Position numbers and translations under genes: made by a program | Notes under the pieces: model-generated | Seen by the model: the letters and a program-made list of their open reading frames with translations, nothing else | What the model was told of the DNA's origin: nothing | Databases searched by the model: none | Origin: a virus | UHGV virus genome: UHGV-0172791 | DNA: 43,851 bases | Strand: one strand, 5' to 3' | Shown: one piece after another, positions 2,191 to 33,493 of the stretch | Layout: the number at the start of each line of letters is the position of its first letter | Position numbering within the stretch: position 1 is the first letter of the stretch

Positions 2191-4347
2191 ATGGGATTAC
2201 CTAGTCCTAAAAGAAGAAAACCTACTGCTTCGGAAGTTGCAGCATGGGCAAAAAGAATGATTGGCAGAAGAGTTGATGTAGATGGTTATTATGGCGCCCA
2301 GTGTTGAATCTAGCACCTTTGATGAGTAATCATCATAGCAAACTCCTCTAATTCATGGGAACCCTAAACAAGTTATGTTGTAGGCAATCATGAGCGAAGC
2401 CTATAAATAGGAACGTGCAACGACTAGTCGAAAGACGTACACTCAAGCGAGTGGAAACGGGGAGCAACCTAATAGGTTGATGATATAGTCTGAACATTCA
2501 TAGAAATATGAAGAAGGTGACAAGTGGCGATTGTCATCGTAACAAAATTGTGGGATTTACCAAACTACATTTTCAATAGATATTGGCATTTCAAAACAAC
2601 AGGAAATGCGATTGCTATGGCGTGGTATAGATATCCTAAAGGGTTCAAATTCTATAGGAATACTAGAAACTTTGTTCCGAAACCCGGAGATATGGCTGTA
2701 TGGGGTACAGGTTCTTTTAATAACGGTGTCGGACATACTGCTGTTGTAATAGGTCCATCTACAAAAAGTTACTTTACTAGCGTGGATCAAAATTGGATTG
2801 GTGCAAATGGTTATACAGGCTCGCCTGGTGCGAAAATTAAACATAGTTATAACGGTATAAGTGGGTTCGTCAGACCTCCTTATCATGCAGAAACTAAGAA
2901 ACCATCGAAACCAAGTAGTACACCGTCTAAACCCTCTAACGACAACACTCCTAAAAATACAAAAGAACAAACGAAACCTATAACTAAAGAAATTACCAAA
3001 GTTTCCTATACATCATTCGCATACGATTTAGACGATGATTTAGAATACATTTATCATTATATGGTTGAAGGTCAAAAGTTGATAGGGAAAGTAAAAGGTA
3101 TATATATCAAAGAGAGTACACATATGCGTTCTGTTGAAGAATTGTATTTACAACGTAATAAATATGTAAATGAAGATGAATATCCTCATGTATATATAGA
3201 CCGTGAGCGTGTATGGACGCCTAGACCTGATTCAGAAGAAGCACCAGAACATCCAGGTTGGCTTGTTATGGAAGTTTGTGGAGGACAAACAGAAAGCAAA
3301 CGGCAATTCATGCTCAATCAAATCAGAGCGTTAATCTACGGCGTTTGGTTGCTAAGTTGGAGTAAGGTAAAACTATCTGAATCATCAATCAAAGCAGACC
3401 CTAATATATGGCGTTCTATGAAAGATTTAATTAATTACGACTTAATCAAAAACGGTATTCCTGATGAAAGTAAATATAAAGAAGTTGAAAAGAAAATAAT
3501 AGGTTTATATTTAAAAAGAGATAAATTACTCACAGAAACGATTACCACAACAACTACAAAGACAACCATAAAGATTAAACCTAAAACTTCGGTCGATAAC
3601 CCTGAACAGAACGACAAACCGACAGACAAAAAAAGCAAAACAACAAACAGAACTTCGAATAAACCTCGTGTAGTTGTAGAGAAAAGTAAATATACTTTCC
3701 AACAAGCACTGAACGCTCAAATGGCATACGGTAAACCTCAAAAATCTTATAGTTGGGGTTGGGGAAATGCATCTAGGTCTCAAACGAGTAAGTATATGAA
3801 CCCTAACACTATATGGAATAGTTCAGTACAAAGGTATCAAATGTTAGATCTTGGTAAGTATCAAGGTATATCAGTAAGTAAGTTGAATAAGATACTTAAA
3901 GGTAAAGGTACTCTATCCGGACAAGGTAAAGCTTTCGCAGACGGCTGTAAAAAATACAACGTTAATGAAATATATTTAATTGCTCACGCTTTCTTAGAAA
4001 GTGGATATGGACGTAGTAACTACGCAAGTGGACGTTATGGTATATACAACTATTTTGGTATTGCAGCATACGACAATAACCCTAATGCTTCTATAGCATA
4101 CGCCAAACGACAAGGTTGGACGAGTCCACGTAACGGTATTATAGGTGGCGCTAAGTTCGTTAGAAAACAATTCTTTAATCAAGGAAAGAACACTTTATAC
4201 CGAATGCGTTGGAACCCTAAAAACCCAGGTCGCATGCAATATGCTACTGCGATTGAGTGGTGTAATTTCCAAGCAACAACAATAAACAGCTTATACAAAA
4301 AAGTAGGATTAAAAGGTATGTATTATATCAGAGATAAATATAGATAA
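2191..4347 (+). CDS. Tail-associated peptidoglycan hydrolase (CHAP domain + C-terminal glucosaminidase domain), split by an intron: exon 1 2191..2304, exon 2 2551..4347
   Basis: Exon 1 MGLPSPKRRKPTASEVAAWAKRMIGRRVDVDGYYGAQC ends at the CHAP catalytic Cys and is followed by TGA. Exon 2 resumes in frame with WDLPNYIFNRYW...GHTAVV (CHAP His). C-terminus NEIYLIAHAFLESGYGRSNYASG...YRMRWNP is glucosaminidase-like. The intact endolysin in this window has the same motif, YGYQCFDVANQYW. Confidence 0.7.
2305..2550 (+). ncRNA. Putative ORF-less group I intron (246 nt) in the tail hydrolase gene
   Basis: Upstream exon ends in U (..CAGUGU) and can pair with GCAC 8 nt inside the intron, giving P1 with the U.G wobble at the splice site; intron ends in G (..AAAAUUG) before exon 2 UGG; length is a multiple of 3; no ORF inside. 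Confidence 0.5.
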
Positions 4348-5921: not shown

Positions 5922-6200
5922 GTGTTATACATGAAAACAGATGTAGGTTCAATCGTTAGAACAATTGTGTTTATTTTAGCTTGGGTTAACCAATTTTTAG
6001 CTACGAAACATATTTCACCTATTCCGGTAGACGAAGTGACTATCAGTTCTATTATTACTGGTGCAATTTCTTTGTGGACTTGGTGGAAAAACAATAATTT
6101 CTCTCACGCAGCACAAAAAGGACAACAAAAATTGCATGAAGTTAAAGCAGGTACAGACTCAACGGGTGCTGCGCCTAGAATGAATGGAGATGATTTCTAA
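5922..6200 (+). CDS. Holin (dual-start motif MLYMKT)
   Basis: Two predicted TM helices (IVRTIVFILAWVNQFLA; ISSIITGAISLWTWW), charged C-terminus, immediately upstream of endolysin; two in-frame Met codons 3 codons apart (5922 and 5931) each with RBS. Confidence 0.7.
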   Translation: MLYMKTDVGSIVRTIVFILAWVNQFLATKHISPIPVDEVTISSIITGAISLWTWWKNNNFSHAAQKGQQKLHEVKAGTDSTGAAPRMNGDDF

Positions 6201-7603
6201 TGGTATCTGTTAGAACATACAAACAAGCTATAAGTTATCTAAAAAGTTTAGAGGGGAAAGCAGTAAATCCTGATGGTGCTTATGGATATCAATGTTTCGA
6301 TGTAGCCAACCAATATTGGTTATACCTATTCGGTCATACTTTAAAAGGTGTGGGTGCTGCAGACATTCCGACATGGAACAATTTTACAGGAGAAGCTACT
6401 GTTTATGAGAATACATTATCATTCTTAGCTAAGCCTGGAGATGTAGTGATATTCAACAGAAATTATGGCGGGGGGTATGGTCACGTAGGTATCGTTATTT
6501 CTGCCACTTCTAACTCTATAACGATACTTGAGCAAAATTGGGTTGGGGGTGCGTATTGGACACCACCTGAAGTCACTACAAGACGTACACATGGTTATGA
6601 CTTCCCTATGTGGTTTATCAGACCGTTCTACGCTAAAGAAACGACTAAGAACAAAGTTAAAAGCAAAACTAAGCCTGTTAAGAAAGCGAAAGCTAAGAAA
6701 GGTAAGAAAATCTTACTTGTTGCAGGTCATGGAAAAGGTGCTTATTCAAATGATCCTGGTACCGTAGCAAATGGATATAATGAGCGCGACTTTAACAGGA
6801 AAGAGATTATACCTAGAATAAAAAAACAACTCGAAAGTGTAGGAAATACAGTTGTTTTATACGGTGGAAAGTCAATGAATCAAGACTTGTATCAAGACAC
6901 ACTATACGGTCAACGTGTAGGTAACTATTCAGATTATGGTTTATATTGGGTTAAAAAGAATGTGAAACCTGATGTGATTGTAGAATTTCACTTAGACGCT
7001 GCTAGTCCACAAGCTAGTGGTGGTCATGTCATTGTAAGTGACAGGTATCCTGCAGACGATATAGACAAAGCGTTATCTAGCGCTCTAGGTAAGACAGTTG
7101 GTAAAATCAGAGGCGTGACACCTAGAAACGATTTGTTAAACGCTAACGTTACAGGACAACTCAATTTAAATTACAGATTGATTGAGTTAGGTTTTATCAC
7201 TAGTAAAAAAGACATGGACTATATCACTAAGAACATCAACAGTTTTACTAAACGACTTGCAGAGGCTATTAACGGTAGACAAATAAACGCACCAAAAAGC
7301 AAACCATCTAAAGCTAAAACAACGTGGGATTGGGCAGGTAAATTCACTGCTAACAGTACTATTAAAGTACGTAAGTCGCCTGGACTTAAAGGCACTGTAG
7401 TTGAAAGTGGTTCGTGGTTGTACAAAGGAAATTATGTTCCTTTCGACCAAGTAATCAAAAAAGATGGGTATTGGTGGATTAGATTTGAATATGTTCAGCC
7501 AGGCTCAAGTGACAAACATTTCTACTGCGCCGTTTGTAAAATCACAGACAAACAGCAAAAAATAAAAAATGAGAAATATTGGGGTAAAATAGACTGGAAA
7601 TGA
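6200..7603 (+). CDS. Endolysin: CHAP + amidase_3 (N-acetylmuramoyl-L-alanine amidase) + SH3b cell-wall binding domain
   Basis: YGYQCFDVANQYW / GHVGIV (CHAP Cys/His); ILLVAGHGKGAYSNDPGTVANGYNERDFN (amidase_3); C-terminal WDWAGKF...GYWWIRFEY SH3b-like; start overlaps holin stop (ATGA). Confidence 0.9.
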   Translation: MVSVRTYKQAISYLKSLEGKAVNPDGAYGYQCFDVANQYWLYLFGHTLKGVGAADIPTWNNFTGEATVYENTLSFLAKPGDVVIFNRNYGGGYGHVGIVISATSNSITILEQNWVGGAYWTPPEVTTRRTHGYDFPMWFIRPFYAKETTKNKVKSKTKPVKKAKAKKGKKILLVAGHGKGAYSNDPGTVANGYNERDFNRKEIIPRIKKQLESVGNTVVLYGGKSMNQDLYQDTLYGQRVGNYSDYGLYWVKKNVKPDVIVEFHLDAASPQASGGHVIVSDRYPADDIDKALSSALGKTVGKIRGVTPRNDLLNANVTGQLNLNYRLIELGFITSKKDMDYITKNINSFTKRLAEAINGRQINAPKSKPSKAKTTWDWAGKFTANSTIKVRKSPGLKGTVVESGSWLYKGNYVPFDQVIKKDGYWWIRFEYVQPGSSDKHFYCAVCKITDKQQKIKNEKYWGKIDWK

Positions 7604-25343: not shown

Positions 25344-26612
25344 ATGAGTAAATTAGTATTAGATTTAGCTGATTTAATCCCTAAACACTTTCATGGACTG
25401 TGGAAAGCTACTAAGGACAAAGAGAAACTTAACATAGTAGCTAAAGGTGGACGTGGTAGTGGTAAGTCCTCTGATATATCTATCATTATTACACAGTTAA
25501 TTATGCGCTATCCTATGAATGCAGTTGTAGTACGTAAGACGGATAATACATTAGCTACATCAGTATTCGAACAAATTAAGTGGGCGATAGAAGAACAAAA
25601 GGTGTCACACCTATTTAAAGTTAAAGTGTCGCCAATGGAAATCACATATGTACCTAGAGGGAATCGGATTATCTTTAGAGGGGCACAGAACCCTGAACGA
25701 TTAAAGTCGTTAAAAGATAGTCGGTTCCCTTTTTCTATCATGTGGATAGAGGAGTTAGCAGAATTTAAGACAGAGGATGAAGTTACGACAATTACTAACT
25801 CTATGTTACGTGGTGAATTAGATGACGGATTGTTCTATAAGTTTTTCTTTAGTTATAACCCGCCTAAGAGAAAACAATCTTGGGTTAACAAAAAATATGA
25901 AACCTCATTCCAACCAGATAACACATTCGTACATCATTCAACGTACTTAGATAATCCTTTTATCTCTAAGCAATTTATACAAGAGGCAGAGAGTGCGAAA
26001 GAACGTAACGAACAACGTTATCGTTGGGAATATATGGGCGAAGCGATTGGTAGTGGCGTTGTACCGTTTAACAATTTACAAATAGAGAAGATACCTGATG
26101 ACTTATACAAGACATTCGATAATATACGTAATGCAGTTGACTTTGGTTATGCTACTGATCCACTAGCATTTGTACGTTGGCACTATGATAAGAAGAAACG
26201 TATTATCTACGCAGTTGATGAACACTATGGTGTACAAATAAGCAATAGAGAGTTTGCTAACTGGTTAAAACGTAGAGGTTATCAATCTGATGAGATATAC
26301 GCAGATAGCGCTGAACCGAAATCAATCGCAGAGCTAAAACAAGAACATGGTATTAAGCGTGTTAAAGGTGTGAAGAAAGGACCTGACAGTGTAGAACACG
26401 GGGAACAATGGCTTGATGATTTAACTGCTATTGTGATAGATCCCAACAGAACACCTAACATAGCAAGAGAATTTGAAAACATCGACTATGAAACTGACAA
26501 AGACGGTAACGTTAAACCGAGATTAGAAGATAAAGACAACCATACGATAGACGCCACTAGATACGCCCTAGAGCGTGACATGAGGCAGAATAAACTTAGC
26601 ATACTTACGTAA
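25344..26612 (+). CDS. terL: Terminase large subunit
   Basis: Walker A VAKGGRGSGKS; nuclease-domain acidic residues in C-terminal half; 422 aa. Confidence 0.9.
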   Translation: MSKLVLDLADLIPKHFHGLWKATKDKEKLNIVAKGGRGSGKSSDISIIITQLIMRYPMNAVVVRKTDNTLATSVFEQIKWAIEEQKVSHLFKVKVSPMEITYVPRGNRIIFRGAQNPERLKSLKDSRFPFSIMWIEELAEFKTEDEVTTITNSMLRGELDDGLFYKFFFSYNPPKRKQSWVNKKYETSFQPDNTFVHHSTYLDNPFISKQFIQEAESAKERNEQRYRWEYMGEAIGSGVVPFNNLQIEKIPDDLYKTFDNIRNAVDFGYATDPLAFVRWHYDKKKRIIYAVDEHYGVQISNREFANWLKRRGYQSDEIYADSAEPKSIAELKQEHGIKRVKGVKKGPDSVEHGEQWLDDLTAIVIDPNRTPNIAREFENIDYETDKDGNVKPRLEDKDNHTIDATRYALERDMRQNKLSILT

Positions 26613-31347: not shown

Positions 31348-31669
31348 TCCATTAGACGAGTTTCCTCATACAATCGAATTAGGCTCAAGAGAAGTTGTAG
31401 GAGAGTATCCACGTGAACAAGAGCGCTTTAAAAGCGAAAAAACAATACAAGGATTTATGGATACGCCTACTTCATCTGAACAACTCAAGTTTCATCAAAT
31501 GAACCAATCATATGACAGGAACCTATATACGCCGTACAGCCTGCCAATCACTAACACAAACTTATTTAAATACAACGGTAAAACTTACGAGGTAGTAGGA
31601 GAACCTGTCGACCAAGGCGGGCAACAAGAAATCAACTTAACAAGATTGAGAGAATGTCCTATTGGCTAA
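31340..31669 (+). CDS. Head closure / head-tail adaptor protein
   Basis: 109 aa, position and overlap pattern. Confidence 0.5.
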   Translation: MFNPLDEFPHTIELGSREVVGEYPREQERFKSEKTIQGFMDTPTSSEQLKFHQMNQSYDRNLYTPYSLPITNTNLFKYNGKTYEVVGEPVDQGGQQEINLTRLRECPIG

Positions 31670-33043
31670 GGTTAAATACGGAAATTGGGATTTAGTTAAG
31701 GAACTTGAGGAGTTTGAAAAAGAAACGATTAGATGGGCTAAAAAAGGTATAGCCAAGACAACAACAATTATTCACAATTCAATAGTTAGTAACATGCCCG
31801 TTGATACCGGTTATCTTAGAGAAAGTGTTTCTATGGACTTTAAGAAGGACGGATTAACAGGCGTTATTAATATCGGCAGTGAGTACGCGATAAAACGTAT
31901 GTCGCAATTACTGGTAACAGTAATTTAAAAATCGAGCAAAATCGGTGAAAGTCTTTAAATATAAAGTTGTATGTTAATTACGGTACAGGTATAATGTATA
32001 TGAGGTGATTATATTTGGAACGTAATGATAAAGGGCAATTTGTAAAAGGTATGAACATCAAGGATAAAACGAATGAGAGATTTGGAAGATTAACAGTCAT
32101 TGGAATGTCGGATAAAAAATCTGGCAGAAAAACCTATTGGAATTGTCTGTGTGACTGTGGGAATAAAGTAACTGTGAGAAGTGATTCTTTAGGTACCACT
32201 AAATCATGTGGCTGTTTAAAAAAAGCGAAAGCGCCACTTAATCTAGGAAAAACTAATTTACATGGTTTAACTAAGCATCCATTATACGGAAGATGGAACG
32301 CTATGATAAATAGGTGTGAAAATCCTAACACATTAGCCTATAAAAATTACGGCGAACGTGGTATTAAAGTATGCGACGAATGGCACAATCTGAAAGAGTT
32401 TATTCGTTGGAGCGAAGAAAATGGTTTTAGTGATAAATTAACTTTAGAAAGAATAGATGTTAATGGCAACTATGAACCAAAAAATTGTAAATGGATACCT
32501 ATGGAAGAACAACATTATAATAAACGTACTTCTGTTTATCACACGTATAATGGAGTTACAAAAACTACAATGCAATGGGCTCATGAATTAAATATCCCCT
32601 TGTACAAAGTGTCGAAATATAAGAAAAATAACATACCTTTTGTAGATTTGATTAAAGAGTATAAAGATAACACCGAGGTAACTTAATAGATTGCGAAAGG
32701 CTATTAAGCACTGTAGAGCGTAGGAAGTGAATAAATATAATCTTCCCAAGAGTGTTCGACAACCAATAAAGGTTGTCTTTTTTATTGGTTGAAAATGTAC
32801 GCCGAACTTACAGGTGACTGTAAGAAGTAGAGGATAAAAAGCCTTTACGATAACAAATGATACGTAAACTACGGCACAGGCATATATTCAGTTGGTCCTG
32901 GTGGTAGTCGTGCTAAAAGTATTCCATGGCGTTATAAAGACGCAGACGGACATTGGCACACAACAAAAGGTCAACGTGCACAACCTTTTTGGGAACCTGC
33001 TATTGACGAAGGTAGAGCGTTTTTCAATAAGTATTTTTCATAA
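31662..33043 (+). CDS. HK97 gp10-like head-tail joining protein, split by an intron: exon 1 31662..31891, exon 2 32881..33043
   Basis: Exon 1 ORF runs into a stop after 88 aa. Some 990 nt downstream, a C-terminus with no start codon is read in a different frame: IYSVGPGGSRAKSIPWRYKDADGHWHTTKGQRAQPFWEPAIDEGRAFFNKYFS. Its PFWEPAIDE matches the gp10 family motif pF(l/w)rPA. Spliced product ..IGSEYAIIYSVGPGG.. Confidence 0.6.
31892..32880 (+). ncRNA. Putative group I intron (989 nt) carrying an HNH homing endonuclease ORF
   Basis: Upstream exon ends in U (..GCGAU) and pairs with GUCGC 9 nt into the intron (5-bp P1 with U.G wobble at the splice site); last intron nt is G; length 989 = 2 mod 3, which restores the frame exactly. 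Confidence 0.5.
32015..32686 (+). CDS. Intron-encoded HNH homing endonuclease (zinc-finger + AP2/HNH_3-like)
   Basis: CLCDCGNKV...CGC zinc motif; HPLYGRWNAMINRCENPNTLAYKNYGERGIKVCDEW and LTLERIDVNGNYEPKNCKWI HNH_3/AP2-like; TTG start with RBS GAGGTGA. Confidence 0.7.
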   Translation: MERNDKGQFVKGMNIKDKTNERFGRLTVIGMSDKKSGRKTYWNCLCDCGNKVTVRSDSLGTTKSCGCLKKAKAPLNLGKTNLHGLTKHPLYGRWNAMINRCENPNTLAYKNYGERGIKVCDEWHNLKEFIRWSEENGFSDKLTLERIDVNGNYEPKNCKWIPMEEQHYNKRTSVYHTYNGVTKTTMQWAHELNIPLYKVSKYKKNNIPFVDLIKEYKDNTEVT

Positions 33044-33055
33044 GGTGGTTAAGAT

Positions 33056-33493
33056 ATGTGGGTATCAGTAGAACGGTATCTGTTTAACAAGATATATAAC
33101 AAATTAAAAAGCAACCCTATCATCAAAAAACAGCTTGGTGGTAGGGTTTTTGATTGCGTTCAAAAAGACGCTGTTTACCCATATATCGTTGTGGGTGAAA
33201 CAAACGTCACTAATAAAGAAACGACAACGAGTATGTTTGAAGATGTAGGCGTAACCTTACACGTGTATAGTCAAGCGAGAAATCGTGATGAAGTAGCACA
33301 AATCATTCAGTTTTTAGGTCATGTACTTAATACTGAATTTGAAATCGAACATTACTCATTCATTAAAAGTCGGATTGATACACAAGAAGTGATAACTGAC
33401 ATAGATCAGTACACGAAACACGGTATCATCCGGCTTGTTTTTAAATACAGACACAATACTTTACAAAGGAGTGTAACGAATGGCGCAGAATAA
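33056..33493 (+). CDS. Tail completion protein (DUF3168-like)
   Basis: 145 aa between head-tail joining gene and major tail gene. Confidence 0.45.
   Translation: MWVSVERYLFNKIYNKLKSNPIIKKQLGGRVFDCVQKDAVYPYIVVGETNVTNKETTTSMFEDVGVTLHVYSQARNRDEVAQIIQFLGHVLNTEFEIEHYSFIKSRIDTQEVITDIDQYTKHGIIRLVFKYRHNTLQRSVTNGAE

Follow-up and report, generated by a model that had tools for sequence, protein, structure and literature searches.

What interrupts the tail hydrolase gene (hyd) of this staphylococcal phage, in which a stop codon falls directly after the predicted catalytic cysteine codon and the conserved protein sequence resumes in the same frame 246 nt further on? The window, i.e., the whole stretch of 43,851 nucleotides that was analyzed, belongs to a Rockefellervirus-like temperate siphovirus of Staphylococcus epidermidis, for which the phage collection holds no near-identical genome, the best relatives covering ~50% of 25 kb at ~92% identity. 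Altogether, our analysis argues very strongly that positions 2305 to 2550 constitute a self-splicing, ORF-less group I intron of the phage IA type, inserted in hyd directly after the catalytic Cys codon. On sequence grounds this intron is almost certainly functional, and it is already known from other phages.

Exons, splice boundaries and the predicted hydrolase

A previous sequence-only reading of this locus had described an exon ending in GAQC, followed by TGA and a 246-nt insert, after which WDLPNY is resumed in frame. The sequence and the ORF list agree with this description to the base. The features of the gene are as follows, all on the + strand.

2180-2186, + strand: Shine-Dalgarno-like motif GAGGTGG, 4 nt 5' of the hyd ATG at 2191, read from the sequence and graded strong on that reading.
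2191-2304, + strand: hyd exon 1, 38 codons (MGLPS...DVDGYYGAQC), the last of which, TGT at 2302-2304, encodes the catalytic Cys.
2305-2550, + strand: very probable ORF-less group I intron of predicted IA type, 246 nt, identified through Rfam family RF00028, our covariance model R1, covariation and identical copies.
2305-2307, + strand: in-frame stop TGA, the first three intron bases.
2550, + strand: omega-G, the G with which the intron terminates, kept in 32/32 copies at the QC/WD site.
2551-4347, + strand: hyd exon 2 (WDLPNY...), which encodes the remainder of CHAP with His101 (within GHTAVV), then a linker and the glucosaminidase domain; stop codon at 4345-4347.

In the window sequence and its ORF list, the conserved protein sequence WDLPNYIF... 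begins at 2551, and a join of 2304 to 2551 stays in frame and yields a Hyd product of 636 aa from exons free of frameshifts and stops. This spliced product is colinear with the 636-aa gp24 of phage CNPx, labeled "tail associated cell-wall hydrolase" in its record and encoded by an uninterrupted gene, and the two match residue for residue across GAQC/WDLPNY, which bears out the seamless junction predicted from the sequence. Pfam places a CHAP domain at residues 31 to 119 of the spliced Hyd, spanning the exon junction (PF05257, 35.7 bits against a cutoff of 26), and a Glucosaminidase domain at residues 498 to 619. In the alignment with the CHAPK domain of LysK, Cys38 of Hyd aligns with Cys54 and His101 with His117; mutation of either LysK residue abolishes activity, Cys54 being the catalytic one (PMC4126393). 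Thus, the insert directly follows the catalytic Cys codon, as had been proposed, and by this alignment Hyd appears to carry the Cys-His catalytic pair of CHAP peptidoglycan hydrolases, whose fold is papain-like. The intact CHAP motif of the phage's own endolysin, which had served as the term of comparison, is present as YGYQCFDVANQYW in the ORF at 6200-7603.

The only other boundary that preserves the frame, 2307-2552, was rejected; it would leave a 5' exon ending in G, so that 2305-2550 is the canonical choice. With the latter, the 5' exon ends in U2304, which pairs with G2313, and the insert ends in G2550, both as previously noted; the GCAC of the pairing strand starts at the ninth intron base, so that its earlier placement 8 nt into the insert was right. 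Every homologue opens with an in-frame TAA or TGA, and other phage introns are also known to have a stop in frame soon past the 5' splice site. Translation of the unspliced RNA would hence halt at the splice site after 38 aa.

The insert had also been said to hold no ORF. This is true of the + strand, on which the ORF list gives none of at least 30 aa between 2305 and 2523, the exon-2 frame opening at GTG 2524. It does not extend to the minus strand, where an ORF of 49 aa (2348-2497) lies within the ribozyme; the record of phage BE21 calls it a hypothetical protein, and it is probably spurious. The 246-nt hyd intron encodes no homing endonuclease, and any mobility would therefore have to rely on recombination or on an enzyme provided in trans.

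Ribozyme structure, covariation and proposed splicing

RF00028 matches positions 2294-2513 with 93.8 bits (gathering score, 50; E = 5e-23) over model positions 1 to 253 of 253, and is the sole Rfam family above threshold in the whole window. The covariance-model check suggested for this locus thus came out in favor of a group I intron, and the P3-P7 core pairings were found. The unconstrained minimum free energy (MFE) fold recovers P1 to P9.1 with z = -3.1; the Rfam score and this fold together exclude chance. The structure below was derived from the Rfam alignment and the unconstrained MFE fold, with the pairings read from the sequence indicated as such.

P1, 2301-2316, + strand: GUGU/UG (2301-2306) with the guide UAGCAC (2311-2316), 6 bp, with the wobble U2304·G2313 at the 5' splice site.
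P2, 2320-2335, + strand: hairpin UGAUGA-GUAA-UCAUCA, with compensatory changes in 4/6 pairs.
P3 5' strand, 2343-2348, + strand: CUCCUC, paired with 2459-2464, with covariation in 6/6 pairs and pairing in 100% of cells.
P4 and P5, 2353-2393, + strand: P4 (2353-2358 with 2388-2393) around P5 (2363-2384), from the Rfam alignment, fold and covariation.
P6 and P6a, 2394-2418, + strand: P6 (2394-2396 with 2416-2418), its third pair weak, and the P6a hairpin (2400-2411), with 4/4 pairs covarying.
P7 5' strand, 2422-2426, + strand: GACUA, paired with UAGUC at 2486-2490 and forming a pseudoknot with P3; read from the sequence.
P7.1 and P7.2, 2427-2453, + strand: GUC-GAAA-GAC (2427-2436) and CACUC-AAGC-GAGUG (2440-2453), from the MFE fold; 8/8 pairs covary.
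P3 3' strand, 2459-2464, + strand: GGGGAG, from the Rfam alignment, MFE fold and covariation.
P8, 2465-2479, + strand: hairpin CAACCU-AAU-AGGUUG, from the Rfam alignment, fold and covariation.
P7 3' strand, 2486-2490, + strand: UAGUC, read from the sequence and the homologue alignment.
P9 and P9.1, 2497-2538, + strand: UUCAUA-GAAA-UAUGAA (2497-2512) and P9.1 (2516-2538), with 4 and 6 covarying pairs, respectively.
P10, + strand: the first exon-2 bases UGGG with UCUA at 2309-2312, read from the sequence; 4 bp, two of them G·U, partially conserved (71% paired among homologues).

The pairings were compared with slid controls, in which the 3' partner was moved by 1 to 3 columns. Among six hyd-gene copies of the intron, pairing extends to 97% of cells and double changes occur at 13 pairs, against 0 to 1 in the slid controls. 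The covariance model R1, built from these six copies, scores the hyd intron at 317.8 bits and recovered remoter relatives in Kayvirus, Silviavirus, Baoshanvirus and other Twortvirinae phages. In a set of 14 distinct sequences, to which the relatives from Kayvirus, Silviavirus and Baoshanvirus belong, pairing extends to 96% of cells and compensatory changes occur at 49/73 pairs, with 6 to 13 compensatory pairs and 37 to 43% pairing in the slid controls; fitting of alignments A2 and A3 to the model structure inflates the percentage paired, but the slid controls, which are still far lower, argue that this inflation is not the whole effect. None of 500 shuffles of the 14-sequence set attained the observed pairing and covariation values. 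Moreover, each of the 11 homologues with letters at the splice site retains the U·G wobble, and the flanking P1 pairs covary with the differing host exons.

P7 is the guanosine-binding helix of group I introns, and by analogy P7 of the hyd intron may be expected to bind guanosine. Across 13 homologues it does not change and pairs in 100% of cells, and for want of variation covariation speaks neither for nor against it. Helices P7.1 and P7.2 between the P7 5' strand and the P3 3' strand are typical of subgroup IA in the Michel and Westhof classification, and judged by this single criterion the hyd intron would be of IA type (IA2-like).

Group I chemistry in general leads us to propose the following sequence of events. 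P1 would arise through pairing of the guide UAGCAC (2311-2316) with GUGU, which closes the 5' exon, the U2304·G2313 wobble marking the 5' splice site, and an exogenous guanosine docked at P7 (GACUA/UAGUC) would attack after U2304. G2550 would then take over the guanosine site, while the 3' exon UGGG would be aligned on the guide via P10, and the exons would be ligated. The junction in the ligated mRNA would read ...GCCCAGTGT/TGGGATTTA..., giving the intact 636-aa enzyme; the unspliced RNA would give the 38-aa peptide only, because the intron opens with UGA.

The same DNA could be read as two genuine genes and a spacer, i.e., a 38-aa peptide followed by a 607-aa hydrolase starting at GTG 2524. 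An ORF finder indeed gives 2524-4347 with a GTG start, an AAGGTG motif upstream and a product whose N terminus is MAIVIVTKLWDL, and the records of phages phiIPLA5, BE01 and BE21 are annotated in this way. However, the "spacer" is a high-scoring ribozyme, the gene is single and continuous in intron-less relatives, and the SD-like motif that would serve GTG 2524 is buried in the P9.1 stem. Moreover, this GTG reads GTA in 5/6 aligned copies, and the 607-aa product would be devoid of the CHAP nucleophile; for these two reasons we also rejected GTG 2524 as the start of a truncated enzyme. Altogether, the existence of two separate genes appears extremely improbable, and a single hyd gene interrupted by a group I intron is retained in what follows.

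Known copies, distribution and possible spread of the intron

The sequence-only reading had implied that an intron in the virion-associated hydrolase would be a novelty. This does not hold, since the GenBank record of phage PH15 already gives its hydrolase gene ph24 as a two-piece join. Its second joined gene is the large terminase, with a SegB-like endonuclease. In PMC7235722, which cites the PH15 genome paper, PH15 is described as having two introns, for both of which splicing was demonstrated in vivo. The records of phages E72 and E72m5 likewise give the hyd CDS as a join, with the same 2157-nt span as in the window, and a non-coding intron in the E72 hyd gene has been described (PMC8125051). 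The documented copies share sequence, site and host gene with that of the window: directly after the QC codons, the same 246 nt are 100% identical in E72, E72m5, BE01, phiIPLA5 and BE21, as they are, junctions included, in ten IMG/VR contigs, and 98% identical in PH15 and PG-2021_89. None of the five differences in the PH15 copy breaks a pair in the window's version. The genome of the window is nevertheless a different mosaic from the PH15/E72-type phages, its exon 2 being ~88% identical to theirs beyond positions +71 to +173. Thus, the intron of the window is an ordinary documented feature and brings no new biology in itself, and the support for its splicing in vivo comes from the report by others on the 98%-identical PH15 copy.

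These copies also bear on whether the insert could be a decayed, splicing-dead relic, leaving hyd a pseudogene or the source of a truncated product only. Introns without an ORF, having lost their endonuclease, can decay. Against such a decay, all core helices of the hyd intron are intact, and its peripheral helices are kept paired by compensatory changes, which points to ongoing selection for folding. Copies that are 100% identical occur in plaque-forming or inducible phages (E72, phiIPLA5, BE01), only 5 positions, none breaking a pair of the window, distinguish it from the PH15 copy that is reported to splice, and the exons contain neither frameshifts nor stops. We therefore consider a dead relic very improbable and a functional intron the better account.

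The main value of recognizing this intron lies in annotation. Gene callers make two products of the hydrolase, a "hypothetical protein" of 38 aa and a "glucosaminidase" of 607 aa devoid of the Cys, and the intron is accordingly missing from the records of phiIPLA5, BE01, BE21, IME1323_01, IME1318_01 and StB12, in which the gene appears as an ORF of ~38 aa and a Cys-less hydrolase. Such a split misrepresents an enzyme that is of interest as a virion-associated lysin or enzybiotic and whose active CHAP domain would exist only after splicing.

All 32 copies collected from the window, IMG/VR and one S. petrasii genome sit at QC/WD. A scan of genome contigs with a 23-nt core word matched S. petrasii as the single species, in a collection that holds one genome per species and thus says little on prevalence. 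About half of the related phages are intron-less, including CNPx, CNPH82, phiIPLA7, 456, 48, 27, 459 and IME1348_01. At QC/WD, copies with 87 to 90% identity are carried by phages that belong to S. caprae, S. haemolyticus and S. hominis, as well as by a further S. epidermidis phage.

The intron and its exons have not diverged in step. Compared with E72 or phiIPLA5, the intron is 100% identical, whereas exon 2 positions 151 to 600 are ~88% identical; for the phages of other Staphylococcus species, identity is ~90% in the intron and 63 to 74% in the exons. The intron-less CNPx allele is closer to exon 2 of the window (94%) than the alleles carrying the identical intron. The identical tract spans exon 1, the intron and exon 2 up to +71 (E72 type) or +173 (BE21). 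An intron far better conserved than its exons, with short identical flanks, fits horizontal exchange with co-conversion of the flanks. These comparisons suggest that the hyd intron is mobile, and selection on the ribozyme could contribute to its conservation. It is a polymorphic, selfish element that probably spreads horizontally, and the analysis gave no sign of a benefit or other role for the phage. In phiIPLA5, an ORF labeled "exonuclease" directly precedes hyd; we considered it as a free-standing homing endonuclease and rejected this, Pfam giving only weak coiled-coil-type matches.

The intron could instead splice and be retained to regulate hyd, e.g., by tying the active tail hydrolase to the late-infection GTP level or to translation status. 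In line with such a role, it lies at the catalytic Cys and opens with a stop in frame, such that no active enzyme would come from unspliced RNA, and it is maintained in many lineages. However, about half of the close relatives do without it while their hyd is otherwise similar, which is the pattern of a dispensable mobile element, and conserved DNA that encodes a catalytic site is what homing phage group I introns usually target. A regulatory role thus seems unlikely, and we favor a selfish, mobile intron.

The same stretch of hyd is targeted in phage BE28 by a different insertion of 983 nt, which separates the codons for Ala and Gln at a point 6 bp further upstream and which by match length PG-2021_93 probably shares. 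It has a partial match to the group I core, and its ORF is labeled "HNH endonuclease" in the record, while Pfam detects an AP2 domain only. With the two sites 6 bp apart, two different introns target the same catalytic-site DNA. One tentative hypothesis, to which we give limited credence, could be that the ORF-less hyd intron spreads actively among divergent staphylococcal siphoviruses, by recombination in coinfection or prophage encounters or with a nuclease acting in trans, and competes with the BE28-type HNH/AP2 intron for the Cys site, each destroying the target of the other. Intron identities of 87 to 100% against exon identities of 63 to 92%, together with the identical tract of exon 1, intron and 71 to 173 nt of exon 2, leave room for such a scenario. 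More broadly, this family of compact, well-sampled, ORF-less introns, which are fixed at a single catalytic-site codon in phages of several Staphylococcus species, could serve for studies of the spread of introns that lack an endonuclease.

Related introns and other insertions

In other staphylococci, close relatives are the hyd introns found in phages of the Azeredovirinae type (IME1323_01, IME1318_01, StB12, HOB 14.1.R1 and an S. petrasii prophage). They lie at the same QC/WD site, measure 243 to 246 nt, are 87 to 90% identical to the hyd intron of the window and have the same helices with compensatory changes, although their exons are only 63 to 74% identical. StB12-type hyd genes differ in having a second, related intron further downstream; a literature search on the StB12 introns returned nothing relevant. 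The ORF-less introns of Twortvirinae (Kayvirus tmpA/tail-tube region, Silviavirus, Baoshanvirus and Twort orf142) are also small, with cores ~70 to 78% identical and P1 to P9.1 including P7.1/P7.2, but they occupy other host genes and have other guide sequences, P1 covarying with the exon.

Further away, the introns of T4 nrdB/td and SPbeta bnrdE/F, which we take to be phage IA2 introns, show core similarity detectable by BLAST at query positions ~105 to 220 and have P7.1/P7.2. Introns of this type usually contain homing-endonuclease ORFs and reside in nucleotide-metabolism genes. The lysK intron of phage K carries an endonuclease ORF as well. Like the hyd intron, the staphylococcal endolysin introns, of which that of lysK is one, are group I introns in a peptidoglycan-hydrolase gene, in their case the endolysin and here the virion-associated hydrolase. 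Endolysin introns were found in 20 of 205 staphylococcal phages (PMC6507118).

The terminase intron of PH15 has no counterpart in the window, where the large terminase ORF (25344-26612) is uninterrupted. A second intron had been suspected in a structural gene of the window. An insertion is indeed present there, in a gene of the HK97-gp10-like tail-completion type; no group I core was detected in it, since RF00028 gave no second core in the whole window at E ≤ 1 nor within 31850-33100 at E ≤ 10, and the R1 scan of the window matched the hyd intron only, leaving this 968-nt insertion unmatched. Compared with the intact gene of phiIPLA7, exon 1 would correspond to 31662-31891 and exon 2 to 32860-33043, separated by the insert at 31892-32859, which follows a T and ends in G. 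The insert contains an ORF of 223 aa (32015-32686), labeled "HNH endonuclease" in the BE28 record and giving a Pfam match to CapR homology here. It is a plausible candidate intron, also present in PG-2021_93 (98.8% identical) and BE28 (91%).

Two introns near the catalytic-cysteine codon of the hydrolase gene

The tail-associated cell-wall hydrolase gene (hyd) of phage BE28 was found to carry an insertion that is distinct from the ORF-less group I intron of the window:

L004 (BE28 locus) 1100-2082: 983-nt insertion in hyd

This insertion, which partly matches the group I core, is flanked by Ala (GCT) and Gln (CAA) codons, and its site precedes that of the window's intron by 6 bp. Its ORF is entered in the BE28 record as an "HNH endonuclease"; Pfam finds only an AP2 domain in it. 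The catalytic-Cys DNA is therefore the target of two distinct introns.

Moreover, comparison of window positions 2191-2720 with five loci of related phages (L014, L016, L017, L003, and L002) revealed a sharp mosaic boundary in hyd. Between the start of this comparison in exon 1 and +71 of exon 2, the intron included, the window shows no difference from E72 and phiIPLA5; with BE21 the identical tract reaches +173. Beyond it, identity to the intron-bearing alleles falls to ~88%, and the closest allele for the rest of exon 2 is that of the intron-less CNPx (94-96%).

Related introns in other phages and positions

Relatives of the window's intron were found further downstream in hyd and in another gene region:

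L008 (phage StB12) 1963-2271, also in L028, L031, and L048: second related group I intron in StB12-type hyd
L010 (Kayvirus PM36) 1447-2060, also in L012 and L013: tandem intron relatives

The StB12-type intron (~295 nt) lies further downstream within the CHAP domain, near ...FTSV/DQNW, holds a large insertion in P7.1, and scores 173-182 bits against R1, our covariance model built from six hyd-gene intron copies. In Twortvirinae, the tail-tube/tmpA region harbors two or three tandem ORF-less relatives, ~70-78% identical to the window's intron and annotated as Intron_gpI in the PM36 record.

A candidate intron in the gp10-like gene

The window's HK97-gp10-like tail-completion gene is also interrupted:

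31662-31891 and 32860-33043: flanking exons
31892-32859: 968-nt insertion
32015-32686: 223-aa endonuclease-like ORF within it (CapR-homology Pfam match)

The insertion is preceded by T and ends in G, and the BE28 counterpart of its ORF is annotated "HNH endonuclease." It is common to PG-2021_93 (98.8% identity) and BE28 (91%); phiIPLA7, E72, and PH15 are without it. As searching the window with both RF00028 (the Rfam group I intron model) and R1 gave no match to this insertion, we consider it only a candidate intron with a putative ribozyme.

Surroundings and inner ORF of the hyd intron

2348-2497, minus strand: 49-aa ORF entirely within the ribozyme

This ORF is probably an artefact of gene calling; the BE21 record lists its counterpart as a hypothetical protein. 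A terminator-like hairpin (AAGCCGG...TCGGCTT, then a T-run; 2141-2162) lies directly 5' of the hyd ribosome-binding site, between hyd and a small ORF ending at 2120.
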